Origin: an uncultured Clostridium sp. | Lineage (GTDB): Bacteria; Bacillota; Clostridia; Peptostreptococcales; Peptostreptococcaceae | DNA length: 64,000 nt | Assembly: GCA_964449895.1 (NCBI GenBank) | Contig: CAYVBY010000002.1 | Span: 41,119-105,118, forward strand | Direction of reading: 5' to 3' | In this document: piece by piece, positions 25,627 through 44,739 of the stretch | How positions within the stretch are numbered: position 1 is the stretch's first letter | Layout: every line of letters begins with the position of its first letter | Notes under the pieces: generated by a model | What the model was told of the DNA's origin: nothing | Database searches by the model: none | The model's input: the letters and a program-made list of their open reading frames with translations, nothing else | Program-made: the position numbers and the translations under genes

Positions 25627-25783
25627 AATATCACCGCCTATTTTTTAGCTACCCTTTATAAAGAATTATTTATTTTTTATATTTCTTCCTTTAAAAAAAT
25701 ATCTAAAAAAATATACATTCTTCTACAAATCATTTTAAATTTTTATCTCAAAAATCATTATTTTTTTATTTGTGCAAAAAATA

Positions 25784-25835
25784 AAGCTTGCTTATGACAC
25801 AGTTTTGTTTTAACTGTTATCATAAAACAAGCTTG
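25784..25835 (-). terminator. Terminator after the ABC exporter operon
   Basis: aagcttg...ttatga-acag / ctgt-tcataa...caagctt imperfect hairpin. Confidence 0.55.
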
Positions 25836-25841
25836 TAATTT

Positions 25842-27779
25842 TTATTCTAATTCAAAAGCACCAGTATATAATTGATAGTATTTACCTTGTTTTTCAATAA
25901 GTTCGTCATGACTTCCACGCTCAATTATTCTTCCTTGGTCTAATACCATAATAACATCAGAGTTTTTTATAGTAGATAACCTGTGTGCTATTACAAATAC
26001 TGTTCTTCCTTGCATAAGTTTATCCATACCATCTTGAACTATTTTTTCTGTTCTAGTATCTATACTTGATGTTGCCTCATCTAATATTAATACTGGTGGA
26101 TCTGATATTGCAGTTCTTGCAATTGATAAAAGCTGTCTTTGACCTTGAGATAAGTTACTTCCGTCTCCTGTAAGAACTGTATTATATCCATCTTTTAAAT
26201 GCGAAATAAATCCATGTGCATTTGCAAGTTTTGCAGCTTCTATTACTTCTTCATCTGTCGCATCTAATTTACCATATCTTATATTTTCCATAACTGTTCC
26301 AGTAAATAAGTGAGTATCTTGAAGTACTATACCTAAAGATCTTCTAAGATCATCTTTTTTAATTTTATTTATATTGATTCCATCATATCTAATTTTTCCA
26401 TCTTGGATATCATAAAATCTATTTATTAAGTTTGTTATAGTAGTTTTACCAGCTCCTGTAGCACCTACAAATGCAACCTTTTGACCTGGTTTTGCATAAA
26501 GTTTTATATCATGTAGAACTATCTTTTCCTCATCATATCCAAAGTCTACTCCATCAAATACAACATCTCCTCTAAGCTTAGTATATGTTACTGTATTATC
26601 AGCCTTATGTGGATGTTTCCAAGCCCAAGTTCCTGTTCTTTTTTCAACTTCTTTAAGTTCTCCATCTTCTTCTACTGCATTTACTAAAGTTACATATCCA
26701 TCGTCTACTTCTGGATTTTCATCTATTAATTTAAATATTCTCTCTGCACCAGCAAGTGCCATAATTACAGAGTTAAACTGTTGAGAAACTTGAACTATCG
26801 GCATATTAAAGCTTCTAGTTAATTGTAAAAATGAAGCTAATGCTCCTATAGTTAAATTCCCTATTCCATTAATAGCTAAAATAGCTCCTATTGCTACTAC
26901 TAAAACATAATTTATATTTCCTATATTAGCCATTATAGGCATCATCATATTAGCTAGTCCATTAGCCTTATTTGCACTTTCAAATAATTTATCGTTTAAT
27001 TCTTCAAATTTTAATTTTGATTCTTCTTCATGACAAAATACTTTAACTACCTTTTGCCCTTCCATCATTTCTTCAATATATCCATTTATTTCACCAAGGT
27101 TTTTTTGTTGATTTATAAAATAAAATCCACTCTTTGAACCTATAACCTTCATAACTTTATACATTATAGCTACCATAATTACAATTAAAAAAGTAAGTAT
27201 TGGACTTAATACTATCATAGATATAAATGTAGCAGTTATAGTTATTACAGATGATATAAGGTTAGGTATACTTTGACTTATCATCTGTCTTAATGTATCT
27301 GTATCATTTGTATAAATACTCATAATATCTCCATGAGTATTTGTATCAAAGTATTTGATAGGAAGTTTTTCCATATGTTCAAATAAATCATCACGAATCT
27401 TCTTAAGTGTACCTTGAGATATATTTATCATAATTCTACTGTATAAATATGATAATATAGCTCCTGTATAAAAAATTACAGCCATTATACAAATAACCTT
27501 AAAAAGTGGTACAAAATCAGGATTTTTACTTCCAACTAGAGGTACTATATAGTCATCTATTAGACTCTTTAAAAATAAATTTCCTACAACAGAAACAATT
27601 GAACTTATAAGTAATGCAATTAAAACTATAAAAAAGGCTAATTTATATTGTTTAAATATATAACTCATTATTCTCTTTAAAGTTTTAATAGGATTTCCAC
27701 CTTTTGGTGGTTTTAGCATTACACCTTTTGGAGCCTTCATAGGTTTCTTATTTGCAAAATTTTTATTTGTCATCTTCAT
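25842..27779 (-). CDS. ABC exporter subunit (TMD-NBD), consensus NBD
   Basis: GATGAGKTT, LSQGQRQ, LILDEAT, IAHRLS. Confidence 0.93.
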   Translation of the reverse strand: MKMTNKNFANKKPMKAPKGVMLKPPKGGNPIKTLKRIMSYIFKQYKLAFFIVLIALLISSIVSVVGNLFLKSLIDDYIVPLVGSKNPDFVPLFKVICIMAVIFYTGAILSYLYSRIMINISQGTLKKIRDDLFEHMEKLPIKYFDTNTHGDIMSIYTNDTDTLRQMISQSIPNLISSVITITATFISMIVLSPILTFLIVIMVAIMYKVMKVIGSKSGFYFINQQKNLGEINGYIEEMMEGQKVVKVFCHEEESKLKFEELNDKLFESANKANGLANMMMPIMANIGNINYVLVVAIGAILAINGIGNLTIGALASFLQLTRSFNMPIVQVSQQFNSVIMALAGAERIFKLIDENPEVDDGYVTLVNAVEEDGELKEVEKRTGTWAWKHPHKADNTVTYTKLRGDVVFDGVDFGYDEEKIVLHDIKLYAKPGQKVAFVGATGAGKTTITNLINRFYDIQDGKIRYDGININKIKKDDLRRSLGIVLQDTHLFTGTVMENIRYGKLDATDEEVIEAAKLANAHGFISHLKDGYNTVLTGDGSNLSQGQRQLLSIARTAISDPPVLILDEATSSIDTRTEKIVQDGMDKLMQGRTVFVIAHRLSTIKNSDVIMVLDQGRIIERGSHDELIEKQGKYYQLYTGAFELE

Positions 27780-29499
27780 CAGCTCCTTTCATTTGTGATT
27801 CATAAACTTCTCTATAAATGCTATTATTTACTTTTAGTTCATCATGTGTTCCTATAGCATTTATTTTTCCATCATCTAAAACTATAATTTTATCACTATT
27901 TTCTATTGATGATATACGCTGAGCTATTATTATCTTAGTTGTTGAAGATATATCATTTTTTAAAGTATTTCTAATTATAGCATCAGTTTTTGTATCTACT
28001 GCACTTGTAGAATCATCTAAAATTAATATCTTTGGTTTTTTAAGTAGAGCTCTTGCTATACATAATCTTTGCTTTTGTCCTCCAGATACATTGTTTCCAC
28101 CTTGTTCTATATAAGTATCGTATCCATTTGGAAAAGTTTCAATAAATTCATGAGCACAAGCTTTTTTGCAAGCATCTATTATTTCTTCATCTGAAGCATA
28201 TTTATTACCCCATCTTAAATTTTCTTTTATAGTACCTGAAAATAATACATTTTTTTGTAAAACCATAGAAACTTCATTTCGAAGACTTTCAGTATCATAG
28301 TCTTTTACATCTACTCCTCCAACTTTTATACATCCACCTGTAACATCATAAAGTCTTGGAATTAATTGAACTAAAGTAGATTTTGCACTTCCTGTTCCTC
28401 CTAGGATACCTACAGTTTCTCCTGATTTTATTTCTAAATTTATATTTTCTAAGTTTAGTTTCTCTTTATCTTCCATATAAGAAAAATCTACATTCTCAAA
28501 TATTATTGATCCATCCTTTACTTCTTTTATAGGATTTTTACAATTTTTTATAGTACTTTCTTCTTCTAAAACTTCAATTATTCTTTCTCCAGAAGATTTT
28601 GACATTGTTAGCATAACAAATATCATAGACATCATCATTAAACTCATAAGTATTTGTGTAGCATAAGTAAATAAACTCATAAGTTGACCTGTAGTCATAG
28701 TATCTGAAACTATCATCTTAGCCCCTAACCAAGATATAAGAAGTATACATGTGTACATACTAAATTGCATTACAGGACTGTTTAATACTATTATTTTTTC
28801 TGCATCTATAAATTTGTTTTTTACATTGTCTGAAGCTTTTTTAAATTTATTTATTTCAAATTCTTCCCTTACAGCAGATTTTACAGTTCTAATTCCTATT
28901 AAATTTTCTTGAACACTCGCATTTAAAGCATCGTACTGTTTAAAAACACTCCTAAATCTAGGGTGTACTATTTTAATTATAAATGAAAGAACTGTTCCTA
29001 AAAAAATCATGGCAATAAAAAATACAAAAGATATCTGTTTATTTATTGAAATTGCCATTATAAGTGAAAATATAAGCATTAATGGTGCTCTTACACATGT
29101 TCTTATAATCATTTGATATGAATTTTGTATATTAGTTATATCAGTTGTAAGTCTTGTTATAAGACCTGCTGTTGAATATTTGTCTATATTTTCAAATGAA
29201 AACTCTTGAATATTTTTAAATATAGCACTTCTTAAGTTTCTTGCAAATCCAGCAGATGCATATGCTGCAAGTCTTGCTGCTAATGCACCACAAGCTAACG
29301 ATATAAAAGATACGACTAACATAAGTGTTCCTATTTTTATAATGTAGTTCATATCTCTATTATTTATACCATTATCAATTACTGCTGCCATTAGTAATGG
29401 TATAATAACATCACAAACAATTTCAATCAATATAAATAATGGCGCCATTATCGATGCTTTTTTAAATTCTCCAATATAGGATGATAACTTTTTTATCAT
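27763..29499 (-). CDS. ABC exporter subunit (TMD-NBD), degenerate NBD
   Basis: GGTGSAKST, VSGGQKQ, LILDDST (E to D), IAQR (H to Q); overlaps the partner gene. Confidence 0.93.
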   Translation of the reverse strand: MIKKLSSYIGEFKKASIMAPLFILIEIVCDVIIPLLMAAVIDNGINNRDMNYIIKIGTLMLVVSFISLACGALAARLAAYASAGFARNLRSAIFKNIQEFSFENIDKYSTAGLITRLTTDITNIQNSYQMIIRTCVRAPLMLIFSLIMAISINKQISFVFFIAMIFLGTVLSFIIKIVHPRFRSVFKQYDALNASVQENLIGIRTVKSAVREEFEINKFKKASDNVKNKFIDAEKIIVLNSPVMQFSMYTCILLISWLGAKMIVSDTMTTGQLMSLFTYATQILMSLMMMSMIFVMLTMSKSSGERIIEVLEEESTIKNCKNPIKEVKDGSIIFENVDFSYMEDKEKLNLENINLEIKSGETVGILGGTGSAKSTLVQLIPRLYDVTGGCIKVGGVDVKDYDTESLRNEVSMVLQKNVLFSGTIKENLRWGNKYASDEEIIDACKKACAHEFIETFPNGYDTYIEQGGNNVSGGQKQRLCIARALLKKPKILILDDSTSAVDTKTDAIIRNTLKNDISSTTKIIIAQRISSIENSDKIIVLDDGKINAIGTHDELKVNNSIYREVYESQMKGADEDDK

Positions 29500-29527
29500 T
29501 TCTTTCCTCCTTAATATTTAATAAATG

Positions 29528-29953
29528 TTAATTAAAATTATTTAAAATTTTAGTTAACAATATAGTAAGTTCTTCTTTTTCTTTATTAGAAAAACCTTCA
29601 AACATATTTAATTCCAAATTTTCCATATTTTTGCTTCCTTCTTCTATTAAACTTTGACTTTTTTCTGTAAGTTTTATAAATTTTGATCTTTTGTCATTTT
29701 CATTTATTTGTCTGTATATTAAATTTTTTTCTTCTAATCTCTTTAAAATACCTGTTACTGTAGGATTTTTTAATCTTAATTCAGCCTCTAAATCCCTCTG
29801 CGTAATAAGTAAATCCTTATTTTTATTTAAATATAAAATCACACTTAATTGTGAATGAGTTAAATTATATTTTTGTAGATATTTATTACAATGAGACTCA
29901 AAAGCTATATGTATTTTTTTAAACAAACAACCAAACATTAATTGTTGTTCCAT
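29528..29953 (-). CDS. MarR family transcriptional regulator
   Basis: 141 aa, LTHSQLSVI, PTVTGILKRLEEKNLI, DKRSKFIKLT. Confidence 0.92.
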   Translation of the reverse strand: MEQQLMFGCLFKKIHIAFESHCNKYLQKYNLTHSQLSVILYLNKNKDLLITQRDLEAELRLKNPTVTGILKRLEEKNLIYRQINENDKRSKFIKLTEKSQSLIEEGSKNMENLELNMFEGFSNKEKEELTILLTKILNNFN

Positions 29954-29969
29954 ATGTAATTTCCTCCTT

Positions 29970-30019
29970 AATTATATAGCTCGCTATATAATTTTATTAA
30001 TTTTTTTTATACTTGTCAA
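29970..30019 (-). promoter_or_regulatory. SigA promoter with overlapping MarR-type operator
   Basis: TTGACA (30014-30019)-17-TAAAAT (29991-29996); perfect 11-2-11 palindrome aattatatagc-tc-gctatataatt at 29970-29993. Confidence 0.75.
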
Positions 30020-30123
30020 TATAACTCTTATTTTAAAAAGATTATCATTTTCAATTATATAATAAAATAGAGAATTTAGAATTAACTAAATTCTCCATTT
30101 TTTATATTATAAAAAAATTATAT

Positions 30124-31512
30124 TTATTTTATTTCATCTTGTATTCCTGGAATTATAGGTAATTTATCAAACCCTACTTGTAAATCTTCATCTGTAGGAA
30201 TATAATCAGTCATTTTTCCTTCTGTATAAGCATTATATCCCTTCATATCAAAATATCCTGTTCCTGTTAATCCAAATAATATTATCTTTTCATCTCCAGT
30301 TTCTTTACATTTTAATGCCTCATCTATTGCAACTCTAATAGCATGTGATGATTCAGGTGCTGGAAGTATAGTTTCAACTTTAGCAAATAATGTAGCTGCC
30401 TCAAATACTTTAGTTTGCTTAACTGCAACAGCTTCCATATATCCATCGTGGTATAATTTAGATATTACTGGATTCATACCGTGATATCTAAGTCCTCCTG
30501 AATGACTTTTAGATGGTGTAAATTCACACCCTAAAGTATACATTTTAGCCATAGGAGTTATTTTACCTGTATCACAGAAATCATAAGCATATTTACCTCT
30601 TGTAAGAGATGGACAAGATTCTGGTTCTACTGCTATTATTCTAGGATTAGCCTTTCCTAATAACTTATCTTGCATATATGGAGCTATAAGTCCTCCTAAG
30701 TTAGATCCTCCACCTGCACATCCTATTACTATGTCTGGATATTCTTCTAATTTATCCATAGCAGCTTTAGCTTCTAAACCTATTATTGATTGATGTAAAA
30801 GTACTTGATTTAAAACAGATCCTAAAACATATTTATAACCATCCTTACTTACTGCTACTTCAACAGCTTCAGATATTGCAGTTCCTAAAGAACCTGGAGC
30901 ATCTGGATTTTGAGCTAATATTTTTCTACCTGCATTTGTTGTATTACTTGGCGATGGAGTTACATCTGCACCAAATACCTTCATTATATTTTTTCTATCA
31001 GGCTTTTGTTCATAAGATACTTTAACCATATACACATTTAGAGGTAATCCAAAATAAGAACAAGCTTCTGATAGAGCAGTTCCCCACTGTCCTGCACCTG
31101 TTTCAGTTGTAACACCTTTTAAACCCTCTTTTTTAGCGTAATACGCTTGTGCTATAGCTGAGTTTAACTTATGACTTCCCGAAGTGTTGTTGCCTTCAAA
31201 TTTATAGTATATTTTAGCTGGTGTTCCTAGAGCTTTTTCTAGATTATATGCTCTACAAAGTGGTGATGGTCTATATATTTTATACATTTCTCTAACTTCA
31301 TCTGGTATATCAACATATCTAGTTTTATTATCCATTTCTTGATGAGCTAATTCCTTACAAAATACAGGATATAAATCTTCTTCAACAGCTATTTTCATTG
31401 TAGCAGGATTTATCATAGGATCTGGTAATTCTTTCATATCAGCCCTTAGATTATACCATTGTTTTGGTATTTCTTCTTCACTTAAATATAATCTGTATGG
31501 TACTTTTTTCAT
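30124..31512 (-). CDS. trpB2: Stand-alone TrpB2 (tryptophan synthase beta-like PLP enzyme)
   Basis: IPKQWYNL, SGSHKLNSA (PLP Lys), ETGAGQWG, GGGSNLGG, GGLRYHG, APESSHA; start at 31512 after AGGAGG. Confidence 0.9.
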   Translation of the reverse strand: MKKVPYRLYLSEEEIPKQWYNLRADMKELPDPMINPATMKIAVEEDLYPVFCKELAHQEMDNKTRYVDIPDEVREMYKIYRPSPLCRAYNLEKALGTPAKIYYKFEGNNTSGSHKLNSAIAQAYYAKKEGLKGVTTETGAGQWGTALSEACSYFGLPLNVYMVKVSYEQKPDRKNIMKVFGADVTPSPSNTTNAGRKILAQNPDAPGSLGTAISEAVEVAVSKDGYKYVLGSVLNQVLLHQSIIGLEAKAAMDKLEEYPDIVIGCAGGGSNLGGLIAPYMQDKLLGKANPRIIAVEPESCPSLTRGKYAYDFCDTGKITPMAKMYTLGCEFTPSKSHSGGLRYHGMNPVISKLYHDGYMEAVAVKQTKVFEAATLFAKVETILPAPESSHAIRVAIDEALKCKETGDEKIILFGLTGTGYFDMKGYNAYTEGKMTDYIPTDEDLQVGFDKLPIIPGIQDEIK

Positions 31513-31551
31513 AAATATTCCTCCTATCATTTTTAAATTTATTTTTGTAAT

Positions 31552-31815
31552 AAAAAAAGACTTCTATCCCTATAATTTGGGACAAAAGTCATATCTTCTG
31601 CGGTACCACCCTAATTGGCTGTAAAAACCCTCTCATATCATGTACTATCATACATGCTCCTTTGATAACGGATGGAGTCTCCCGTCAGATACTACTAAGA
31701 TAACTTTTCGCTCTGCCCTCATAAGTCCATTCAATACAAGTTATTTGTCGCAATCCCACCATCTGCAACTCTCTGAAAAATAATTATTGTATCTACTACT
31801 CTTATTCATTGGTTT
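31552..31815 (-). ncRNA. T-box riboswitch, Trp specifier
   Basis: AATTAGGGTGGTACCGC (31600-31616), AGAGAG/GGUG stem-I motifs, specifier loop GAA-UGG-A (UGG at 31727-31729), terminator with U-run before the RBS. Confidence 0.9.
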
Positions 31816-31829
31816 GATTATTATTAATA

Positions 31830-31858
31830 ATAATATTTATATTTTTTTAATTTGTCAA
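31830..31858 (-). promoter_or_regulatory. SigA promoter of the T-box/trpB2 transcript
   Basis: TTGACA-17 nt-TATTAT immediately before the T-box. Confidence 0.7.
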
Positions 31859-31990
31859 CTATTTTTCTGAATTTTCTAATTATTATGCGATAATCTTTTC
31901 AAATATACATAGTTTAGCCTTATCTAATTTTATAAAATTTTTTAATTTATAAAAAAATGATTTATAATTAATTTATAAGGAGTGATTTGC

Positions 31991-33154
31991 ATGGATATAA
32001 AAAAACTATGTCTAGATATAGAAGACTTTATAATAAATATAAGACGAGATTTACACAAAACTCCTGAATTAGGCTTAAAAGAATTTAAAACTAAGGAAAA
32101 AATAAAAAAATATCTAGATGAAATAGGAATTGATTATATAGAACATAAAAATTCAACTGCAATAGTTGCAAATATAAATAATAATTTTGAAAAAACAGTA
32201 GCTTTAAGAGCTGATATAGATGGATTACCTATAGTTGAAGAAATAGATTCAGAGTATAAATCTGAAAATGAAAACACAATGCATGCTTGTGGACATGATG
32301 CACATACTGCAATGCTACTTGGTGCGTGCAAGGTTTTATATGAAAATAGACACCTCTTAAAAGTAAATGTAAAATTCTTCTTCCAACCTGGAGAAGAAAT
32401 AGGTGCTGGAAAATATATGATTGAAGAAGGCTGTCTTGAAAATCCAAAGGTCGATTTCATCTTTGGTCTTCATGTAGGCTCCCATATAAAAACAGGCTAT
32501 ATCGAAATAAAAAAAGGTACAGCAGCTGCATCTACAGATAGATTAATCCTAAAGATAATAGGCAAAAATGGTCATGGTGCTTATCCACATGAAGGAATCG
32601 ATGCCATAGTAATAGCATCTTACTTGGTGACAGCTCTTCAAAGCATAGTAAGCAGAAATACAGATCCCACAGATTCTGTCGTAATATCCTTTGGAAAAAT
32701 ACAAGGTGGAAGCAAAGGCAATATTATATGCAATGAAGTAAATTTAACAGGAACTCTTAGAACACTAAATGAAGAAACTAGAAAATCTACTAAAGAAAAA
32801 ATAAAGCTTATGTGCGAAAATATAAGTGCAGGATTTGGTGGAAAAGTAGAACTTGAAATAATACCTGGAATTCCAGCATTAGTAAATGATTCTAATTTAG
32901 TAGACTTGGTTATAAAAAATACATCAGAGCTTTTAGGTTCTGATAAAGTTTTAAATAAGGAAAAATCTCCTCTTGGAGCTGAAGATTTTTCCTGGTTTTT
33001 ACAAAAAGTACCAGGAGTATTTTTTAATTTAGGTTGTGGCAATGAAGAAAAGGGAACTACATATCCTATACATAATTCAAAATTTCAAATTGATGAAGAT
33101 TGTCTTGTAATAGGAACTATGATTCATGTAAAAAATGTATTATCATTAAAATAA
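31991..33154 (+). CDS. M20D family amidohydrolase
   Basis: RRDLHKTPELG, LRADIDGLP, MHACGHDAH, FQPGEE, GAEDFSW, HNSKF; start at 31991 after AGGAG. Confidence 0.88.
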   Translation: MDIKKLCLDIEDFIINIRRDLHKTPELGLKEFKTKEKIKKYLDEIGIDYIEHKNSTAIVANINNNFEKTVALRADIDGLPIVEEIDSEYKSENENTMHACGHDAHTAMLLGACKVLYENRHLLKVNVKFFFQPGEEIGAGKYMIEEGCLENPKVDFIFGLHVGSHIKTGYIEIKKGTAAASTDRLILKIIGKNGHGAYPHEGIDAIVIASYLVTALQSIVSRNTDPTDSVVISFGKIQGGSKGNIICNEVNLTGTLRTLNEETRKSTKEKIKLMCENISAGFGGKVELEIIPGIPALVNDSNLVDLVIKNTSELLGSDKVLNKEKSPLGAEDFSWFLQKVPGVFFNLGCGNEEKGTTYPIHNSKFQIDEDCLVIGTMIHVKNVLSLK

Positions 33155-33194
33155 AAGCTGTAATATTTATATATTGTAAAATTAGGAGGACACT

Positions 33195-33635
33195 ATGAAG
33201 AAATTACTACTTGCAAGCTTAATTTTTTTAACTGTATTTACCTTTGGATGTGGTAAAGACGATTCTTTAAATGACATGATAAAATTAAATAAAATAGATA
33301 TCTCCTCTTTAAGTAATTCAAAGATTAAAAAGATAACTGATGATAATAACTTAAAAGAAGGAGCTTACATTATAACTACAAAATCAAATACTTATTTATA
33401 TTTTTTAGGTATAGAAAATGAATTTACAGATATAAGTTGTAATTTAGAAGATAATATATTAAATATAAACTCTTCTTTAAATAAAAAAGATAATACTAAT
33501 GAATTATCTAAAAAAATGTTTGTTGTATATCAAAAGAACACTACTTCTTCAGACAAAAAAATTAATTATTTCGATACTATAAAGTTAACTATAAATGGCA
33601 AAGAATCAAACTTTAATTCCTATATTATTGAATAA
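33195..33635 (+). CDS. Uncharacterised lipoprotein
   Basis: Signal peptide with lipobox FTFG|C at Cys19; RBS AGGAGG. Confidence 0.75.
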   Translation: MKKLLLASLIFLTVFTFGCGKDDSLNDMIKLNKIDISSLSNSKIKKITDDNNLKEGAYIITTKSNTYLYFLGIENEFTDISCNLEDNILNINSSLNKKDNTNELSKKMFVVYQKNTTSSDKKINYFDTIKLTINGKESNFNSYIIE

Positions 33636-33671
33636 AATCACTTAAGCTCAAAACTTCTCATATAATAAAAC

Positions 33672-33725
33672 AAAAATCCTATACAGATGGTCTATTTTAC
33701 TAGACTAATCTGTATAGGATTTATT
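33672..33725. terminator. Bidirectional terminator between the lipoprotein and giant protein genes
   Basis: aaaatcctatacagat / atctgtataggatttt arms between convergent genes. Confidence 0.75.
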
Positions 33726-33793
33726 TTACTCTAACTTATATATTTTTCTACATCAAATTTAGATTTTAATAAAAATTATATATATTTATAATT

Positions 33794-36700
33794 TTACCAT
33801 TCTTCTTTCCAGCCTACATCATTTCCTAATAAATCAAAAACTGATATAGATCCATTTTTGTATGGAGAGTAAACTGTATATTCATTACCAGCTTTATCCT
33901 TATAAATTACATAAGATGCTGCTGTCATTTTTCTTTCAAATTGAGTTTTTGATATACCTACTATTGTTCCTAGATAAGTTACATAATTTTCTTTTTGGTT
34001 TACTTCGTAATTTACCTTACCTATACTTCTAGCAACCTTTGGTGTATTTAGTGTTAATGCTTCATCTTTAGCTAATAAATTAGCAGGTATAATTAAAGTA
34101 CCTTTTTCCACTATTTTATCACCATCATTATATAATTTAGTTCCAAATCTTATACCACTCTCATCATTAACTATTAATTTACCTTGTGCTCCTAGCATTT
34201 CAACATGAGCCCATTTAGCTTTATAAGTTATATTTTTAGTATACTTAGTACCTTTTTTATATTCAGTAGTTATATTATCAGTATCTTTATACCATCCAAC
34301 AAAAGTATATCCTTCTTTAACTGGTGCTTGAGGAGTAAAATCTAATGTTTCTCCTTTTTCTATTGTTTTTACTACTGGCTCTGTACCATTATCTGCATCA
34401 AATGTAATATCTAAAGCTTTTTCTTTTACTGTAATTGTGCAAACTGGTGCTGTTATTACTGCTTTACTATCACTTATAGTTAAGTCAGTATTTTTAGCTG
34501 AAATTGTATATGTTCCTACTTCGTCAAAGCTTATAGATGCTTTACCGTTTTTATCAGTTACTATATTTGTATCTTCTCCATCTATAGTTATTGTAGAACC
34601 TGATATACCTTTTGATTCTGGATTTAGGTATGCATCAGCACTATTAAATCCTAATAATTCTAAATCTACTTTTTCACCTTGTCTTACTGTAATTGAGCTA
34701 TCTTTAAAGTATGTATAGAACATTGGAATTTGATAATCTGTATACATTGTTACATTTACATCATCACCTGATCTAAGTTTGATATTATCTGCTGAAGAAC
34801 CCCAGATAATCTTTTGATCTTCTAGCCATTCTCCTGGGAATTTATTATTTACCATATATGATAATTGTGTTGTTTCTTCATTCCAGAATTTAGTAATATA
34901 TAAATCATTACCTTGAGCTGTACTATTATTTGGTATTCCATTAAATGCATCTACACCTTCTGAATATAACTTATGAGTTAATATAAATGCATTTAATAAT
35001 GTTGGACGCTCTGTTTTTGAATTATATACATCATCATATCCATATTCAGTTACATCAAAGTTTGTAACTTTGACTGGAACTCTTGACATAGCTATAGATT
35101 CATCTGATGATAATTTAAATTCTCCATCTTTACTTATTGTAACATATACTGTAACTCCAAGTTCTATTGATACTGAATTTACACCATCTTTTATTGTTAC
35201 AGTTCCTTTTTCTGTATCAAAACCGTCTTTTGAAACTGTGTAAGTGTAAACTCCACTAGTTGCTAAACTACTATAAAGTGCAGCATTTTTAACTACAGAA
35301 GCTGGTTTTACTATATTTCCTTTAGCATCTTTTAGTTCTATATTTACATCTTTTACATTAACATTTACAATTAAGTTGCAATTTTCTGGTGCAAGAACTG
35401 CATCATTATCTAAAGTTGTCCATGGTTTATATCCATTTTCAGCTGTAACATTTGCATTTAATAAGCTTGCTACATCTCCATTTGCATATTGTTCAGTTGT
35501 TTTACCAGTATTTTGTCCTTCTACATCTGCAGTAACATTTTGTATAGCAAGTTCTGCATAATCACTATTATAGTAATTGTTATTATATGTAGCCTTATAA
35601 TTTGTATACGCTATACCACCTGCTTTATATTTACTTGTAGAAGTTACTTTTCCACTATTTGAACAGTTTTCTACTTTTGCATTTGTAGATGCAGTATGAA
35701 CTATACCTCCTACTTGTTGTCCTTTTAGGTTAGCTGTATTGCTGCAATTTTCAATAGTAGCACTACTTATAGTACTTGCTATTGAAGCTACTGAAGCATT
35801 CTTTTTAGCTTTTTGTGTAATTTCTCCATTATTTTGACAGTTTTTAATAACTGCATTTTGACTTACTTGTCTAACTATACCTGCACCACCAGTTGGGTCA
35901 ACTATATTTCCATTGTTTACACAGTTAACTATTGTTCCTCCATTTAAATAACTAACTATACCACCTACTGTTGCATAAGAGCTTCCAAAATCCATATCTA
36001 TATTACTAACACAATTTTCTATTGTTCCATTTGTACAAGTGTTTATTATACCTCCACCTGTTTTATACATGTAACCACTTACTTTAAGATTTTTAAGTGT
36101 TCCATTAGTAATAGAATTAAATAAAACTCTGTTATAAAGTCCACTTATTGTATAATTTTGTCCATCAAATGTTCCTTGGAATGCTCCTATAGCAGTCCAA
36201 ACTTCAGGTTTACCATTTACAGTTATATTTCCTTCTTCATCCTTATTAAAGAACTCTGAACTATTTAATTCTATATCATTTCCTAATTTTATAGTTTTTC
36301 CTGCAAAATTATCTTTTGCTATAGAAATAGTATTTCCATTTGTTATTTTAACAAGACCTACTAATTGATCCTTTGTAGTTATTGTAAATTCAGTCTTATC
36401 AGTATTATACCAATCTACATCATATATTCTATTCATAGATAATGATATAGTATCTAAATCAGAATCTGTAACTGTAAATGTACAATCACTACCTGAAATA
36501 GTTTCAAATCCATCTGCAGCTGCAGTATAAGTATATGTTCCTGGAAGTAACTCATATGTAGACCAATCATCTGATAATGGAATTTGATATCCTTCACTAT
36601 TTTTAATTGTTACTTTTAATTTAGTTGTAGCATTTGAATCAAATGATACTTTATATCCAGATGTCATTTGAACATCAATTTCGACCTTAGTTGCTTCCTT

Positions 36701-39700
36701 TACTGGTTCAACAGTAAATTCTTTTATAACTGTTGGATATTTTTCAGATGAAGCATAATAGTAGTAATCTCCTGGAAGTAATGTATATGTACCATTTTCA
36801 TTAGCTGTAACTAATTTTTTATTGCTCTTTTGATATAATAATACACTTAAATCATCTACATTAGATTTAAAACTAACCTCTGTAGAAATATATGATAATG
36901 TAACATTTATAGTAGTAGCATTTCCATCATATGTTATTTCTTTAGTTTGAGGCTCATATCTATCAGCACTTACTGTATATGTATAAGTTTTGCCTGATTC
37001 TAATGAATTCTTGTAATAGCTATATACACCTTCTGTTATAGGTTTAATCACATTTCCTTCACTATCTTTAAGTTCTACTTTTGCATCACTTGGAGATAAT
37101 GTAAATGACATTCCTGCTATATTTTCTCCAAAAGTAGTTACTTTATTTTCATCTACTTTCCAATCTTTAAATTTATTATCTGCTGTTAAACCTTTGTTTA
37201 ATAATTTAGCAACATCTCCATTTTCAAATTCAGCTTTTGTTTTAGCAATACCTTCAGTAGTTGTACCTTGATTTTCACTCTTTTCTAAGAAGTAACAATT
37301 AGAAATTGTAACTGAACCTGATTTTTTAGCTATAATTTCATTTTTAGCATTTCCAATATTATAGCAGTTCATTATATTTGTTAAATAACTTTCTCCAACT
37401 ATACCACCTGAAGCTTCATTAGATGTTTTAACTTCACCTAAATTGTAGCAATTTCCTACAAAAGTTTTATATCTTTGATCTCTATATGTGTATCCAGCTA
37501 TACCACCTATTTGTTGTGAATTATCTGATGTTCCAGTTACTTGACCTTTATTATATGAATTAATTAAATAATAAGCTCTAAGTATATATCCAGTAATTCC
37601 ACCTATTTTTGATTCTCCTGATACATTACCTTCATTTATACAAGAATCTAAATAACCATTAAAAGATAAATTACCTACAATACCACCACAACAATCAGAA
37701 CCACTTATATTTCCTTTATTTATACAATTTGATACAATTGCATCTGAGTTTATAAATCCTGTAATTCCTCCTACTGTACCTTTACCAGTTATATTTGCTT
37801 CATTTATACAATTATTTATTACTGTTGAATTTATTGCATATCCAACAATACCACCGACATAAGTACTTTTAGCTGATACATTTCCCTTTACAGTCAAGTC
37901 GTATATTTTAGCCCCGTCAGCACATCCAAATAAACCAACATATTGTGAATTATCTGTTATATTAATATTTATATCTATGCTGTGATTATTACCATTAAAT
38001 GTACCTTGGAATTTTTTCTTATAACTTCCTATAGGTAAAAGTTCGCCAATTTTATCACTAACTTTTATATCATTTGCTAAAACAATAGTTTTATTTTTAA
38101 ATGTTTCTGTATATGAAGTTTGTCCATTTACTATAGCAGCAAGCCCTGCTAATTCTTTTTCATTAGTTATTTCAAAGCTATCCTTAGTAGAATCATACCA
38201 AGATATATCGTATTCAGCTCCAGTCAATGTAACTGTTAGCTCTAAATCAGTATCAACTAACTCAAATTCGCCACTTACTTCATCATAGCCACCTGCACTA
38301 GCTTTATAAGTATATTTACCTTTTTTAAGCTCATAAGTTTTTTCTGATTTTGGTTCTACTAATTCACCATTTTCTTTATATACTTTTATTTCTTGATTTC
38401 TAGTAGTTTCTGGTTTTACAACAAATTTAACATTAAATTTTTGTTCTAGTTTTACAGAAATTTCTTGGTCCTTAGAATCTACTGTAAATGTATCGTTTTT
38501 ATCATAGAATTTATTTTTTGATACTTCATAAGAGTAAGTACCATTTGTAAGATAGTAGCTTCCATCTTCATTAGCTGTTATTTTATTACCTTCGCTATCT
38601 TTTACTACTACTACTGCATCACTTGGATCTGTATTTATAGTAATTTTAAATAAAGCATTTAATTTTATGCTCTTATTAACATCAGCTTCTTTAATTTTAA
38701 CTGTACCAGTTTTATCCTCGTATCCTGTGCAAGTTATTTTATAAGTATATGTTCCTACTGAAAGCTTATATTTTCTGTCTGATACTTTATAATTTTTAGA
38801 AGCATTTTCTTTAATTTCATTTTTATCTGAATCATATAAAGTAAATACAGCTTTTGATGTATCTTGTCCTTCTCCAGTTATATCAAATGTAGCATTTGCT
38901 AATTTGAAAAGCTTAGTTTCTTTTCCTACTACATCCCATGAATAATATAAATTATTTTCAGTATTTACATTTTTATTTAATAAATCTGCTATTTTAGAAT
39001 TTGCAAAGTCATCTTCTGTATAAACATTTCCATACATATAGTAGCTATCTACAGCTTGAGTTCCTTCTTTTACTACTAATTTTGAACTCTTAACATAACA
39101 GTTTTTAACTGTTGCGTTGTTTGTAATAACTAAGTTGTTATCTGATAAGTTATATGAGTTTTCAACTCTACCATTATTATTATTTACTAATGAACCATTT
39201 CCTTCTATACATGCATTTACTACTATAGCTTTTTGACCTAAATTATTAAATAAGCTTCCATTTATATTTTTAACTGCATATCCAGCTCCATCAAAAGTAC
39301 CATTAAATGTACCTATTCCAGCCCATTCTTTGTCATTTAAATCTAAATCATGTGATAATACTATAGTTTTTCCAGCAAAATCATTTCCTTCTTTAGTTAA
39401 TTTTAAAAGACCTGCTAATTGATTATTATTAGATATTTTAAAGCTTGAATCAGATTCATTGTACCATGTAGTATCTGCTGATTCTCCATCCCATAAAGAT
39501 GATAATTTTGCTAATTTAACACCTATTGATTTATTAGCTCCGTCTATTGTGAATTCACCAGTTTTTGTAGCATATTCATCTTTTGATACTTCATAAGTAT
39601 AAGTACCATTTGGAACTGTGTATATGTTATCATCTGAAGTTAATATATTTCCTTCGCTATCTTTTACAATTAATTTAGCGTCACTTGGTGTTATACCAAA

Positions 39701-41236
39701 GCTAACTTCATATACTTTTGTAAATGAGAATTTTTCTTTATTATTTTTCCATCCCAAATATCCATTTTCAGAACTTACTTTTGAATTTAATAGTGAAGCT
39801 ATTGTTGCATAATTTTCTTCTGTAGGTTCAAAATATTGACAATCTGTTGCCTTAGCTCCTCCACAATATCCAAATACTTTTCCAATATAGCTATTTCCTG
39901 TTATCTCTCCAGTTGTAATACAATTTGATACAGTTCCTCCTGCGTTATAACGGTCACCACCGAATATTCCGCCACCTTGTTCTATACTAAATACATTACC
40001 ACTGTTATAGCAGTTATCTATATGGCCACCCCAGAAAAATCCAGTTATTCCTCCAGAATATTTATATGAATATCTTGCTCCTTCTTGTACATAGCTATTT
40101 TGAACGCCTTCAAATACTTTTACTTCTCCTGTATTATAGCAGTTTTTAATATATGCATTTTCAAGATATACAGCTCCAGTTATTCCTCCTGCATCCCAAA
40201 CAGCTTCAACATAACCTGTATTATAACAGTTTTGAACTACACAATTTTGAGTCCAACCAGTTATTCCTCCAGCATCATAGTGACCATAAATTTTTCCAGT
40301 ATTATAACAATCAGATATGCTACATTCAGAAGAAGTTTTACCACAACAAACTCCTGCTATACCTCCAGAACCTTTCATTGTGTCATAAACTGAATCTTTT
40401 CCCCAACAATTTATAGTTCCACTATTAGAACATTTTTTAATATTTCCTTCATTATATCCTACTATACCACCCATAAAATCTTCAGCATCTATAGTAGCTA
40501 CGTTAGTACATCTTTCTACTGTACCTGAGTTTTTAGCAACAATACCACCAACATATTTTCCTGTAGCATTTACAACTACTTCACTGTCTATGTCTTGTAC
40601 TTTACCTTCATTAAATACAACAAGCGTACCAACATAATTTTTACCAGTTACTTTTCCTGATAATTTCAACTTTTTAATTGTACCTTTGTTGTATCCAAAT
40701 ATTCCTTGATTATCGCTATCAGATACTATTTTAATTCCTTTAATTGTATTGTTTTGACCATTAAAAGTCCCTTCAAAAGGATTTTCTTTTGTACCAATAG
40801 ATTCAATATCTAATCCATTAAAATTGATATCCGATTCTAAAACAATAGTTTTTCCTTTAAAACTATCTTGTACTTTGTTTCCTCCAGCATCTTCTGCTGT
40901 ACCATTAACGATTCTAGATAATAATACCAAATCGTCTTCTGTAGAAATTACAAAGCTTGTTTTTTCAGAATCATACCAACCAACTTTAACTGAAGTTGAT
41001 TTTGTAGCTTCTTCTGCTTGTTCTTTTTCTGTAGATTGTTCTTTTTGAACATCCTCTGTAGTTTCTTCAGTTTTTTCTATATCTTCTTCTGAAACTTGTG
41101 TATTTTCTTGAACTTTTTCTATTTCACTTTGTTCTATAGCATCTGCAACTACCATAAATAATGATGTTGAAGACATTGTTATAGCCATACAGATTGCCAT
41201 AAATATAGCAGATATAGATTTAAACTTCTTGTTCAT
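33794..41236 (-). CDS. 2480-aa secreted modular surface protein (4 GLUG-type beta-helix modules, PEGA/Ig-like repeats, DUF4430-like domain, InlB B-repeat, unknown C-terminal domain)
   Basis: Sec signal ending ADA; four WY...GKTI.L..DI module heads; many GGI.G...NCYN.G.V repeats; GTYTY.VS..GY repeats; TFDADNG...P.KEGYTFVGWY. Confidence 0.8.
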   Translation of the reverse strand: MNKKFKSISAIFMAICMAITMSSTSLFMVVADAIEQSEIEKVQENTQVSEEDIEKTEETTEDVQKEQSTEKEQAEEATKSTSVKVGWYDSEKTSFVISTEDDLVLLSRIVNGTAEDAGGNKVQDSFKGKTIVLESDINFNGLDIESIGTKENPFEGTFNGQNNTIKGIKIVSDSDNQGIFGYNKGTIKKLKLSGKVTGKNYVGTLVVFNEGKVQDIDSEVVVNATGKYVGGIVAKNSGTVERCTNVATIDAEDFMGGIVGYNEGNIKKCSNSGTINCWGKDSVYDTMKGSGGIAGVCCGKTSSECSISDCYNTGKIYGHYDAGGITGWTQNCVVQNCYNTGYVEAVWDAGGITGAVYLENAYIKNCYNTGEVKVFEGVQNSYVQEGARYSYKYSGGITGFFWGGHIDNCYNSGNVFSIEQGGGIFGGDRYNAGGTVSNCITTGEITGNSYIGKVFGYCGGAKATDCQYFEPTEENYATIASLLNSKVSSENGYLGWKNNKEKFSFTKVYEVSFGITPSDAKLIVKDSEGNILTSDDNIYTVPNGTYTYEVSKDEYATKTGEFTIDGANKSIGVKLAKLSSLWDGESADTTWYNESDSSFKISNNNQLAGLLKLTKEGNDFAGKTIVLSHDLDLNDKEWAGIGTFNGTFDGAGYAVKNINGSLFNNLGQKAIVVNACIEGNGSLVNNNNGRVENSYNLSDNNLVITNNATVKNCYVKSSKLVVKEGTQAVDSYYMYGNVYTEDDFANSKIADLLNKNVNTENNLYYSWDVVGKETKLFKLANATFDITGEGQDTSKAVFTLYDSDKNEIKENASKNYKVSDRKYKLSVGTYTYKITCTGYEDKTGTVKIKEADVNKSIKLNALFKITINTDPSDAVVVVKDSEGNKITANEDGSYYLTNGTYSYEVSKNKFYDKNDTFTVDSKDQEISVKLEQKFNVKFVVKPETTRNQEIKVYKENGELVEPKSEKTYELKKGKYTYKASAGGYDEVSGEFELVDTDLELTVTLTGAEYDISWYDSTKDSFEITNEKELAGLAAIVNGQTSYTETFKNKTIVLANDIKVSDKIGELLPIGSYKKKFQGTFNGNNHSIDININITDNSQYVGLFGCADGAKIYDLTVKGNVSAKSTYVGGIVGYAINSTVINNCINEANITGKGTVGGITGFINSDAIVSNCINKGNISGSDCCGGIVGNLSFNGYLDSCINEGNVSGESKIGGITGYILRAYYLINSYNKGQVTGTSDNSQQIGGIAGYTYRDQRYKTFVGNCYNLGEVKTSNEASGGIVGESYLTNIMNCYNIGNAKNEIIAKKSGSVTISNCYFLEKSENQGTTTEGIAKTKAEFENGDVAKLLNKGLTADNKFKDWKVDENKVTTFGENIAGMSFTLSPSDAKVELKDSEGNVIKPITEGVYSYYKNSLESGKTYTYTVSADRYEPQTKEITYDGNATTINVTLSYISTEVSFKSNVDDLSVLLYQKSNKKLVTANENGTYTLLPGDYYYYASSEKYPTVIKEFTVEPVKEATKVEIDVQMTSGYKVSFDSNATTKLKVTIKNSEGYQIPLSDDWSTYELLPGTYTYTAAADGFETISGSDCTFTVTDSDLDTISLSMNRIYDVDWYNTDKTEFTITTKDQLVGLVKITNGNTISIAKDNFAGKTIKLGNDIELNSSEFFNKDEEGNITVNGKPEVWTAIGAFQGTFDGQNYTISGLYNRVLFNSITNGTLKNLKVSGYMYKTGGGIINTCTNGTIENCVSNIDMDFGSSYATVGGIVSYLNGGTIVNCVNNGNIVDPTGGAGIVRQVSQNAVIKNCQNNGEITQKAKKNASVASIASTISSATIENCSNTANLKGQQVGGIVHTASTNAKVENCSNSGKVTSTSKYKAGGIAYTNYKATYNNNYYNSDYAELAIQNVTADVEGQNTGKTTEQYANGDVASLLNANVTAENGYKPWTTLDNDAVLAPENCNLIVNVNVKDVNIELKDAKGNIVKPASVVKNAALYSSLATSGVYTYTVSKDGFDTEKGTVTIKDGVNSVSIELGVTVYVTISKDGEFKLSSDESIAMSRVPVKVTNFDVTEYGYDDVYNSKTERPTLLNAFILTHKLYSEGVDAFNGIPNNSTAQGNDLYITKFWNEETTQLSYMVNNKFPGEWLEDQKIIWGSSADNIKLRSGDDVNVTMYTDYQIPMFYTYFKDSSITVRQGEKVDLELLGFNSADAYLNPESKGISGSTITIDGEDTNIVTDKNGKASISFDEVGTYTISAKNTDLTISDSKAVITAPVCTITVKEKALDITFDADNGTEPVVKTIEKGETLDFTPQAPVKEGYTFVGWYKDTDNITTEYKKGTKYTKNITYKAKWAHVEMLGAQGKLIVNDESGIRFGTKLYNDGDKIVEKGTLIIPANLLAKDEALTLNTPKVARSIGKVNYEVNQKENYVTYLGTIVGISKTQFERKMTAASYVIYKDKAGNEYTVYSPYKNGSISVFDLLGNDVGWKEEW

Positions 41237-41471
41237 TACAGACTCCTCCTTTTATTATAATTTTTAAATATAAGAAAATATGAAATAAAATTAGATATAT
41301 TTTTCTAATTTATACTTATTTTCTACATATTTCTTTAAGACAATTATAAAATAAAAGGAATTTATAAAAAGTATGATTTTTGGGGTAATTATTTTGCCAC
41401 TACTATAATTACTACTAATTACAAAAGTATAATTTTAGAATATATATATCTTCTACTGATACTATTTTTAC

Positions 41472-41522
41472 AACAAAAAAAGATACAAAATAAATTTTAT
41501 TCTATCTTGTATCTTTTTTGTT
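41472..41522. terminator. Strong terminator-like hairpin about 200 nt downstream of the MATE gene
   Basis: aacaaaaaaagatacaa / ttgtatcttttttgtt. Confidence 0.7.
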
Positions 41523-41716
41523 ATGTTTTTTTACTCTTACAAAATAACTTAAATCAAAAAATTTGTATTTTGGGAAGGGTTATAGAGTAACTGTATGTAA
41601 GATTTTGTTTCACAAAGTTTCACTATATTTAAAATACAACAAATTTAACTATTTGCAAAGTAGGATTTTAGGAGTGATACCTTAAATACAAAATTAGTAA
41701 CTCTAAATTTATACTT

Positions 41717-43069
41717 TTAGTACCAATAAAGTTTCCACTTACCACTTAAATATCTCCATACAAAAAACACTGCTCTAACAATCCAATCTATTGTCATTGC
41801 TACCCATACACCAAATACACCCCATCCCATGTATTTTCCTATAATGTAGCTAAATCCTATTCTAAAAATCCACATTGACAATACACTTACAACCATGCAA
41901 AATTTAACATCATTACATGCTCTAAGACTATTAGGTATTAAGAAAGATAAAGGCCATATTAGCATAGCAACTACTCCATGGTAAATTATAATATCCCTAG
42001 CCATTTTATGTGTTTCATAAGATAAGTTGTATAAATTTAAAATTTGATTTAATGCTATAAAAATAAACACATTAGTAATTAACATTCCTATATAAGCAAA
42101 TTTCATCATTTTTTTAGTGTAATATTTTGTTTGATATTCATCATTTGCTCCAACGCATTGAGATACTACAGCAATATCAGCTTGACCAATAGCCATAGCT
42201 GGAACTATTTGAAAAAGTGCTAAGCTATTGCTAACTGCATTTGCTGCAATTGATGCTGTTCCAAAACCTGCCACTAAATTTAAAATTACTATCTTTCCAA
42301 GTTGAAACATACTATTTTCAAGTCCATTAGGTACTCCTATATATAAAATTCGCTTTATCATTTTCTTATTAAAATGAAAGTTAAACTTTTCAGATAAATG
42401 AATTTGTAAATCTTTATTTCTAATAATATAAATTGCTATTATAGCTGCTAAATATCTAGAAACTACAGTTGGAATAGCAGCACCCATAACACCCATTTTT
42501 AATCCATAAATCATAATTGCATTACCTAAAAAATTGACACCATTCATAAGTAAAGATATTTTCATAGTTATTTTAGAATTTCCCATAGCTCTAAATAATG
42601 CTGCTGCACCATTATATACTGCTATACCTGGAATTGATAAAAATACTATTAACAAATAAATGTTTGCATGATTTACAACAATAGGTTCTAATTGACCAAA
42701 AACTTTATATAATATAAAATTTTTCAAAATATAACCTAAAATCATAATTGCAACTGAACTTATAAGTAAAAATGATACTAATTGATCTGCAGCTTCACAT
42801 GATTTTTTTTCATTTTTTTGACCTAAAAACTGTCCTGCAACTACTGCACCACCTGTTCCTAAAGCTGTAAAAACTTGTATTATAAGTATCATTATTGTAT
42901 CAACTAAAGATACAGCTGATACTGCTGCTTCTCCTACACTTGCAACCATAATTGAATCTACAAGACCTACAACTATCAAAAGAACCTGTTCTACAATTAA
43001 AGGCATTATTAATTTTTTTAAATCCGAATTAGAAAATAAATAATTTATTTTCTCATTACTTGCTTGCAT
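41717..43069 (-). CDS. MATE family transporter
   Basis: About 12 TMs, VDSIMVASVGEAAVSAVSLVD, FRAMGNSK, IGVPNGLENSMFQLG; start placed at 43069. Confidence 0.88.
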   Translation of the reverse strand: MQASNEKINYLFSNSDLKKLIMPLIVEQVLLIVVGLVDSIMVASVGEAAVSAVSLVDTIMILIIQVFTALGTGGAVVAGQFLGQKNEKKSCEAADQLVSFLLISSVAIMILGYILKNFILYKVFGQLEPIVVNHANIYLLIVFLSIPGIAVYNGAAALFRAMGNSKITMKISLLMNGVNFLGNAIMIYGLKMGVMGAAIPTVVSRYLAAIIAIYIIRNKDLQIHLSEKFNFHFNKKMIKRILYIGVPNGLENSMFQLGKIVILNLVAGFGTASIAANAVSNSLALFQIVPAMAIGQADIAVVSQCVGANDEYQTKYYTKKMMKFAYIGMLITNVFIFIALNQILNLYNLSYETHKMARDIIIYHGVVAMLIWPLSFLIPNSLRACNDVKFCMVVSVLSMWIFRIGFSYIIGKYMGWGVFGVWVAMTIDWIVRAVFFVWRYLSGKWKLYWY

Positions 43070-43244
43070 TAAAACCACTTCTTTCATTACTAAATATTTA
43101 ACATAAATATAGAGATGCTTTAAATAAAACATCTCTTTTTATCATTTTTGTAAAATTAGAAGCTATCAATATTTAAAATATCAATAGCCACCTAATTTTA
43201 TTTATTAATTATATACCTCTTGTTATATTTTTACAACTAAAGTC

Positions 43245-44531
43245 TTATAAAGTTGCTTTTAAAGCTTGGTCTAAATCCCAAATTAAGTCATTTATATCTT
43301 CTATACCAACTGACATTCTTATCATATCTGGTTTAACTCCTGCTGCTATTTGCTCTTCCTCGTTAAGTTGAGCTTGAGTAGTACTTGCTGGATGTATAAC
43401 TAGTGATTTGGCATCAGCAACATTTGCAAGATGAGAGAATATTTGAAGGCTTTCTATAAACTTCTTACCAGCTTCAAGACCACCTTTTATACCAAATGTA
43501 AATATTGAACCAGCTCCATTAGGGAAATATTTTTGACCTAAATCGTAGTATTTATTGTCTTTAAGTCCTGGATAATTAACCCATGCTACTTGAGGGTGGT
43601 TGTTTAAAAATTCAACTATAGCTTTCGTATTGCTTACATGTCTTTCAACTCTAAGTGATAAAGTTTCAAGTCCTTGTAATAGCATAAATGCACTAAATGG
43701 ACTTAAACAAGCTCCTGAATCTCTAAGCCATTGTACTTTTAATTTAGTTGCATAAGCTGCTTTACCTACATCTTTTGCATAATTTAAACCATTGTATGAC
43801 ATATCTGGTTCAGTTAAACAAGGGAATTTTCCACTACCTATCCAGTCAAAATTACCACTATCTACAACTACTCCACCTAAAGTAGTACCATGACCACCTA
43901 TAAATTTAGTAGCTGAATGAACAACTATATCTACTCCATGTTCAAACACTTTTATTAAATAAGGAGTCCCAAAAGTATTGTCTATCATAAATGGAATTTT
44001 ATTTTCATGAGCAATATGTGCTATAGCTTCTAAATCTACTATATTCATACCTGGATTGCTTATAGTTTCTGCATATACTAATCTAGTTTTATCATTTATA
44101 GCAGCTCTAAAGCTTTCTGGATCATCAGGATCTACAAAATTAACTTTTACACCTAATTTTGGAAGCATATTTGAAAGTAAATTATATGTTCCTCCATATA
44201 AAGTTGGTGCTGCAACTATCTCATCACCTGCTTGTATTATATTAAGTATTGCTGCATTTATAGCACCCATTCCAGAAGAGAAAGCCACAGCTCCTACTCC
44301 ACCTTCAAGTAAAGCCATTCTATCTTCAAATACTTGTACTGTTGGATTTGATATTCTTGAATAAATATGTCCTTCTTCTTTTAGTGCAAATAAATCTGCT
44401 CCGTATTGAACACTTTCAAAACAATATGATGATGTTTGATATATTGGAACTGCTCTAGCTCCTGTAGCAGAGTCTGGTTCTTGTCCTCCATGAATTTGTA
44501 ATGTACTAAAGCCCAATTTTCTATCTTCCAT
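43245..44531 (-). CDS. metY: O-acetylhomoserine/O-acetylserine sulfhydrylase
   Basis: [27 protein letters not shown] (PLP Lys), [19 protein letters not shown]; start at 44531 (GGAGG); SAM-I upstream. Confidence 0.88.
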
Positions 44532-44725: not shown

Positions 44726-44739
44726 AAATATCCCATTCT

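Follow-up and report, generated by a model that had tools for sequence, protein, structure and literature searches.

The 64,000-nt stretch of DNA analysed here (the window), from contig CAYVBY010000002.1 of an uncultured Clostridium sp. (GCA_964449895.1), carries a stand-alone tryptophan synthase beta type 2 gene, trpB2, behind a T-box riboswitch with a tryptophan (Trp) specifier codon. The assembly comprises 2.40 Mb in 38 contigs with 27.2% GC and is rated 99.84% complete. Because its SpoVD protein is 84-87% identical to those of Intestinibacter bartlettii and other Intestinibacter sequences, the source genome is assigned to another Intestinibacter species, and a gut habitat is likely, judging from this genus and the sources of its relatives. 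All elements of the trpB2 unit are located on the minus strand, and coordinates are positions in the window.

Furthest upstream is a candidate sigma-70-type promoter (31858-31830), in which TTGACA (31858-31853) and TATTAT (31835-31830) are separated by a 17-nt spacer and agree with the consensus at 11 of 12 positions. It lies about 12 nt 5' of the first T-box model position. In AT-rich DNA such as this the promoter scan finds such sites at a frequency no higher than in shuffled sequence, and the site is only consistent with promoter function. A complete T-box leader of the transcriptional class (Rfam RF00230) follows at 31818-31575 and contains Stem I, the Stem II/IIA-B region, Stem III and the antiterminator. 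It scored 120.7 bits (E = 3.6e-26) against the covariance model, which has a gathering score of 93 bits, and matched model positions 1-219 of 219. According to the RF00230 alignment and the sequence itself, the specifier loop at 31732-31726 reads GAA-UGG-A, with GAA at 31732-31730, UGG at 31729-31727 and A at 31726; this is the GAA-NNN-R arrangement of T-boxes, in which the codon in the Stem I specifier loop is followed by a purine. UGG is the Trp codon and is complementary to the CCA anticodon of tRNA-Trp. The conserved T-box sequence AAUUAGGGUGGUACCGCAG (31616-31598) includes a UGGU bulge at 31608-31605, predicted to base-pair with the 3'-terminal NCCA that is free in an uncharged tRNA.

The leader ends in an intrinsic terminator at 31590-31552, whose stem GACUUUUGUCCC / GGGAUAGAAGUC (31590-31559) is made up of 12 pairs, 5 of them G-C, around an 8-nt loop and is followed by the U run TTTTTTTATT. 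The 5' arm of the terminator is also the 3' arm of the antiterminator, and with this segment in common the two hairpins are mutually exclusive. When each was folded alone, the folding energy was -18.1 kcal/mol for the terminator versus -8.2 kcal/mol for the antiterminator. This is the usual T-box layout, in which the antiterminator needs the tRNA to prevail.

A ribosome-binding site, AGGAGG (31525-31520), can be read from the sequence 7 nt 5' of the ATG at 31512. An alternative, longer open reading frame (ORF) starting at 31530 would include this site. The trpB2 gene at 31512-30124 encodes a TrpB-like, pyridoxal phosphate (PLP)-dependent enzyme of 462 aa. The protein passed the TrpB2 models NF009057 (689 bits, cut-off 366) and TIGR01415 (594.6 bits, cut-off 518.85) and failed the TrpB1 model TIGR00263 (154.8 bits, cut-off 392). 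Its nearest solved structures are those of Sulfolobus TrpB2 (E = 1e-109 to 1e-121; 6HUL_B, 4QYS_B and 6HTE_B). The motifs GSHK, with the PLP lysine, ETGAGQWG and GGGSN are kept and can be aligned to TrpB1 as well as to these TrpB2 structures. Identity to the TrpB1 of C. leptum is 31%, and the N-terminal extension and internal insert typical of TrpB2 are present. Judged by sequence, membership of the TrpB2 family is unambiguous. A preliminary description of the locus had listed a promoter, a T-box with a GAA-UGG-A specifier and trpB2, and all of them were recovered where it had placed them, on the minus strand, with the promoter graded as above.

The transcription unit appears to end shortly after the gene. 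A hairpin at 30095-30070, 29 nt 3' of the trpB2 stop, was detected in the hairpin scan of the plus strand; it is palindromic, has a U-rich tract on the minus strand as well, and is probably a bidirectional terminator. The MarR gene downstream of trpB2 has a promoter-like site of its own at 30019-29991, and from these two features trpB2 is regarded as a single-gene unit.

Apart from trpB2, no trp gene was found in the window or in the genome. The preliminary description had noted the lack of trpA and other trp genes within the window and had proposed a genome search for trpA, trpE, trpG, trpD, trpC and trpF as a check; this search extends the absence to the whole 2.40 Mb. TrpA (PF00290), the indole-3-glycerol-phosphate synthase TrpC (PF00218) and the chorismate-binding domain of TrpE (PF00425) were all missing in a whole-genome six-frame search, in which each family was detected in 14 of 14 control genomes. 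The proteins of the C. leptum trpEGDCFBA operon, each validated against NCBIfam, were also used as phmmer queries over every ORF of 60 aa or more. TrpE, TrpD, TrpC and TrpF gave no match, TrpA gave only noise (15 bits), and the sole match to TrpB1 was TrpB2 itself. Just two generic matches of 63-66 bits were obtained with TrpG, and these are presumably other glutamine amidotransferases. Tryptophanase is likewise absent from the genome, the top Beta_elim_lyase match being a 341-aa threonine-aldolase-like protein. Lacking TrpE, TrpD, TrpC, TrpF and TrpA as well as tryptophanase, the organism is a Trp auxotroph without an internal source of indole, and hence any indole used by TrpB2 must be external. 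In this TrpA-free genome the enzyme would have to work without its canonical partner.

The regulatory context points in the same direction. Three of the 26 T-boxes in the genome have UGG at the specifier position, namely those before trpB2, the Trp-tRNA synthetase gene trpS and trpP, which encodes a 183-aa membrane protein assigned to the Trp transporter family PF17099 (168.7 bits). The latter two T-boxes are found outside the window, before trpP at G000:C10:30929-31175 on the plus strand and before trpS at G000:C7:17523-17691 on the minus strand. Both have the specifier GAAUGGG and a UGGC bulge, and each is most closely related to the other, the trpB2 leader standing apart. By virtue of the UGG T-box that it has in common with trpS and trpP, trpB2 belongs to a three-member Trp-supply regulon together with import and charging.

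We therefore consider it likely that the locus is a single-gene Trp-salvage unit in an Intestinibacter that is unable to make Trp de novo, with TrpB2 turning external indole into Trp. Transcription would start near 31830 and run into the T-box leader. With tRNA-Trp in its charged state, the terminator (31590-31559), as the stronger of the two hairpins, would form and halt transcription ahead of trpB2. Under Trp shortage, uncharged tRNA-Trp would contact the leader twice, through its CCA anticodon at the UGG specifier and through its free 3' end at the UGGU bulge, thereby stabilising the antiterminator and allowing RNA polymerase to read into trpB2. The PLP-dependent, TrpA-independent TrpB2 would then form L-tryptophan by condensing free indole with either L-serine or O-phospho-L-serine. 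This indole would be supplied from outside, most plausibly by indole-producing gut neighbours. The response of the switch to tRNA-Trp, the indole-to-Trp reaction, its co-substrate and the origin of the indole are all inferred.

The arrangement is not peculiar to this genome. The 80 closest TrpB2 homologues outside the genus (69-84% identity) were compared, most of them from Clostridia and Bacteroidales of gut, rumen or faecal origin. With a profile made from leader sequences, a homologous T-box was detected upstream of trpB2 in 49 of the 80 loci, and 47 of these 49 have GAAUGG at the specifier position. In the aligned trpB2 leaders GAA-UGG is invariant (46 of 46), whereas the adjacent preceding stem positions vary freely; unlike in the trpB2 leaders, the three codon columns are variable among the other 25 T-boxes of the source genome. 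The last base of the UGGN bulge is U (22 leaders) or C (21 leaders), with three leaders unscored, and is never a purine. Bacterial tRNA-Trp carries G73 as its discriminator base. Either U or C can pair with a G73 discriminator, which fits tRNA-Trp. Among the 80 related loci, those with a T-box included, no conserved operon partner was found downstream of trpB2.

Of the 49 genomes that carry a T-box-trpB2 unit, 32 have no TrpA, as opposed to 14 of the 31 without the T-box, many of these genomes being metagenome-assembled genomes (MAGs) of unknown completeness. The TrpA-less carriers include the isolates Anaerovorax sp. IOR16, Flavonifractor porci and Pseudoflavonifractor sp. 524-17. The complete genome of Anaerotruncus colihominis DSM 17241 (L048 / G124) has the T-box-trpB2 unit, and its sole TrpA match is partial and contains two TGA stops; the lineage seems to be in the course of losing the canonical synthase while retaining TrpB2. 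The closest TrpB2 proteins outside the genus (83-84% identity) are encoded at L027, L028 and L044, from Ca. Fimenecus and an Oscillospiraceae MAG. No T-box was detectable within 900 nt upstream of these three genes, which must consequently be regulated otherwise, and their genomes also lack TrpA.

The preliminary description had taken the riboswitch as regulatory evidence that TrpB2 serves Trp supply, a view strengthened by the UGG T-box at 49 of 80 homologues, the constancy of GAA-UGG and the regulon with trpS and trpP. Its indole-salvage interpretation gains genomic support from the missing pathway, the regulon and the recurrence of the unit; conversion of the indole, its supply by neighbours and its pairing with serine or O-phosphoserine are proposed parts of this interpretation.

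Phylogeny suggests how the unit has spread. In the leader tree, the 46 trpB2 leaders group together to the exclusion of all others and the host trpS and trpP leaders pair together, indicating that the leader is a lineage travelling with trpB2. In the protein tree, the Intestinibacter clade (support 100/99) is placed among Ca. Fimenecus, Eubacterium and Oscillospirales sequences, and a topology that cuts across families and phyla implies horizontal movement of trpB2 among gut anaerobes. Seven Bacteroidota TrpB2 proteins (among loci L075-L091) make up a clade nested within a Lachnospiraceae-rich group, with support of 98/95 and 100/99. None of the seven Bacteroidota loci has a T-box upstream of trpB2, and the nesting thus argues for transfer of trpB2 between phyla without the T-box. 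Given a private T-box lineage and a protein tree that crosses families and phyla, the Trp T-box and trpB2 may together constitute a self-contained, horizontally mobile indole-to-tryptophan cassette that moves as a unit, a suggestion we make tentatively and with somewhat less than even confidence. Such a cassette would be relevant to auxotrophs since about two thirds of its carriers have no TrpA.

Several observations weigh against indole salvage as the purpose of the locus. First, TrpA is present in 17 of the 49 genomes with the unit, which is also found in prototrophs, among them C. leptum and Agathobaculum butyriciproducens. The unit is accordingly not specific to auxotrophs and may equally recapture indole leaked from the cell's own pathway; the T-box-trpB2 arrangement is better described as a general Trp-supply device. 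Second, a 99%-complete genome of the same genus (G021) is devoid of trpB2, so the route can be done without, and most Trp may be acquired by import through TrpP. Third, if O-phosphoserine were strictly required, its origin would be in doubt, as the genome has no canonical SerC (27.9 bits, cut-off 443.6) and, in a genome-wide search with PF02195, no small ParB/Srx-type serine kinase. The only PF02195 matches are two adjacent ParB_N-domain proteins of 265 aa and 281 aa, which are probably of the ParB/Noc type. Finally, just 13 tRNA genes were found by ARAGORN in the draft assembly, none of them for the cognate tRNA-Trp; tRNA and rRNA clusters are evidently missing from the assembly despite its completeness rating. 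As regards the co-substrate, a gene for a SerA-like phosphoglycerate dehydrogenase (314 aa) stands beside one for a class V aminotransferase (371 aa, weak serC_3 match) on the minus strand of another contig (G000:C14, locus L123, 268-2391). This pair is the only candidate source of O-phosphoserine and could make it.

An alternative role for TrpB2 would be the removal of indole, either as detoxification or to clear an indole signal. Indole is membrane-active and abundant in the gut, and in such a scheme TrpB2 would mainly lower its intracellular level, with Trp as a by-product. The very high indole affinity of TrpB2 enzymes (Hettwer and Sterner 2002, as cited in PMC11535334 and PMC11917138) would suit this function, and so would the efflux genes in the vicinity (MarR with two ABC exporters, and a MATE transporter) and the dispensability of trpB2 within the genus. 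However, a gene with this purpose is expected to answer to indole and not to the charging of tRNA-Trp, and not one of the 46 leaders departs from the UGG specifier. Moreover, trpB2 has its signal in common with trpS and trpP, and the efflux genes are served by a separate promoter-like site and are unlinked to trpB2 in the other 80 loci. We regard indole removal as improbable, if marginally less so than the two explanations that follow.

The distribution of trpB2 within the family raises the question of whether the unit is a horizontally acquired remnant, that is, a cassette from another Clostridia lineage which contributes little because TrpP import meets the need for Trp. Among 112 Peptostreptococcaceae genomes representing 26 genera, TrpB2 occurs in Intestinibacter and in no other genus. 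The leader lineage is separate from the host's own Trp T-boxes, the protein is nested among Oscillospirales and Ca. Fimenecus sequences, and G021 has no copy, all of which would fit such an origin. Conservation within the genus speaks for a gene in use. TrpB2 is present in 7 of 9 Intestinibacter genomes, I. bartlettii DSM 16795 among them, and none of the 9 contains a genuine TrpA. Protein identity to the TrpB2 described here is 94-96% in the other six carriers and DNA identity to its leader 83-86%, and the leader is intact in all seven. In comparison with I. bartlettii DSM 16795 and strain N19, TrpB2 (94% identity) is as conserved as RsmH (95%) and above its neighbours (52-91%), placing it among the best-conserved genes of the region and arguing for purifying selection, as the intact leaders do. 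The gene order SpoVD-FtsL-ABC-ABC-MarR-TrpB2-M20-lipoprotein-MATE-MetY-RsmH is kept in the same two strains, and the GC content at third codon positions of trpB2 (11%) indicates that the gene is adapted to its host. A remnant of little use is therefore an unlikely description of the unit.

It is no more probable that TrpB2 performs another beta-replacement or a serine/phosphoserine deamination, with the T-box coupling some other process to Trp status: the cautious name of TIGR01415 ('TrpB-like PLP-dependent enzyme', a hypothetical equivalog), the many nucleophiles accepted by the TrpB family (engineered TrpB variants were among the PDB matches) and the ambiguity between serine and O-phosphoserine leave room for such chemistry, but the catalytic motifs are intact, the regulatory signal is Trp-specific in dozens of lineages, no conserved neighbour gene hints at another pathway, and all TrpB2 enzymes characterised to date form Trp from indole as far as the cited papers describe them.

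Indole salvage into Trp thus remains the preferred explanation, and the unit is set in a region of mixed content. An accessory block that includes trpB2 (25627-44917) separates rsmH from ftsL-spoVD and is conserved across Intestinibacter, which indicates that it is old in the genus and not a recent island. Divergent from trpB2, on the plus strand at 31991-33635, are genes for an M20 amidohydrolase (TIGR01891, CpsA-like) and a 146-aa lipoprotein; the latter (33195-33635) has a lipoprotein signal peptide and no family match, on which grounds it was rejected as a candidate small serine kinase. Orthologues of both adjoin trpB2 in the six other Intestinibacter carriers. The M20 amidohydrolase is missing from G021, where just a 52%-identical paralogue exists. 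It was considered as a general partner of trpB2 and rejected, since it does not adjoin trpB2 at any of the 80 other loci, the sole match being a 33%-identical paralogue in L087. A gene for a 2480-aa surface protein (33794-41236, minus strand) is absent from the otherwise syntenic I. bartlettii DSM 16795 and N19, in which the MATE gene comes directly after the lipoprotein gene, and is thus a species-specific insertion within the already interrupted rsmH-ftsL interval. An S-adenosylmethionine (S-box) riboswitch is located at 44740-44843 on the minus strand (83.8 bits), 5' of the O-acetylhomoserine sulfhydrylase gene metY.

The locus offers a clean natural test of the purpose of TrpB2, as the sole trp enzyme left in the genome is placed under an uncharged-tRNA-Trp signal common to the transporter and the Trp-tRNA synthetase. 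The same T-box-trpB2 unit is available in a culturable type strain, I. bartlettii DSM 16795. According to the comparative counts, TrpB2-only Clostridia are common. Should the cassette be active, many of the gut Clostridia currently classed as simple Trp auxotrophs would consume indole conditionally, and jointly they would act as a Trp-starvation-gated sink for luminal indole. Indole matters to the host in two ways, through aryl hydrocarbon receptor (AhR) signalling and because indoxyl sulfate is derived from it. A reconstruction of amino-acid metabolism in the gut lists just TrpAB-type variants of indole salvage (PMC9026213), and TrpB2-only organisms were probably scored there as plain Trp auxotrophs. 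As most of the nearest trpB2 genes behind a UGG T-box are in genomes without TrpA, auxotrophy predictions from genomes and metabolic models of the gut should treat TrpB2-only organisms as capable of growth on indole, and these organisms may also reduce luminal indole.

A salvage role of TrpB2 is not new; it was proposed in 2002 and has had experimental support since 2014. The Intestinibacter locus is a clear but ordinary case of an arrangement common in gut Clostridia and reveals neither a new mechanism nor a new family. Its TrpB2 resembles those of Thermotoga maritima and Sulfolobus solfataricus (PDB 4QYS, 6HTE and 6HUL) in family, motifs, N-terminal extension and insert. These organisms are thermophilic prototrophs in which TrpB2 occurs beside TrpA and TrpB1, whereas in Intestinibacter, a mesophilic gut auxotroph, it is the sole trp enzyme and under T-box control. 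O-phosphoserine dependence of TrpB2 has been reported (Busch 2014, as cited in PMC11917138). Salvage of indole into Trp has genetic support in Thermococcus kodakarensis (Hiyama et al. 2014, FEBS J, as cited in PMC11085991), whose TrpB2 is stand-alone as in Intestinibacter but archaeal, beside a full trp operon and without a T-box. From the gut itself, TrpB2 of Bacteroides thetaiotaomicron (BT_RS23500) was studied by Coaux-Seq in 2024, where it benefited an E. coli delta-trpA strain only beside wild-type E. coli, and the authors credit cross-fed, secreted indole for this rescue (PMC11535334). This is cross-feeding of the sort proposed here by a gut TrpB2, in a phylum in which none of the loci examined has the T-box. 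Bacteroidales TrpB2 proteins are 71-72% identical to that of Intestinibacter.

Trp-specifier T-box leaders also precede trpS in Bacillus subtilis and the trp operon in Lactococcus lactis. A T-box before a 'trpB-like' gene of Dehalococcoides was recorded as early as 2008 (Wels 2008, PMC2494555). The trpB2 leader belongs to the same riboswitch family as these three and follows the same UGG logic, but it represents a distinct sub-lineage, UGG(U/C)ACCGCA, that occurs only with trpB2 and apart from the host trpS and trpP leaders. In physiology, the closest likeness is to genital strains of Chlamydia trachomatis (TrpBA, PMC6635532), which likewise are auxotrophs with only the last step of the pathway and obtain indole from the neighbouring microbiota. 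C. trachomatis does so with canonical TrpB1 and TrpA under the TrpR repressor, whereas Intestinibacter would do so with TrpB2 under a T-box.

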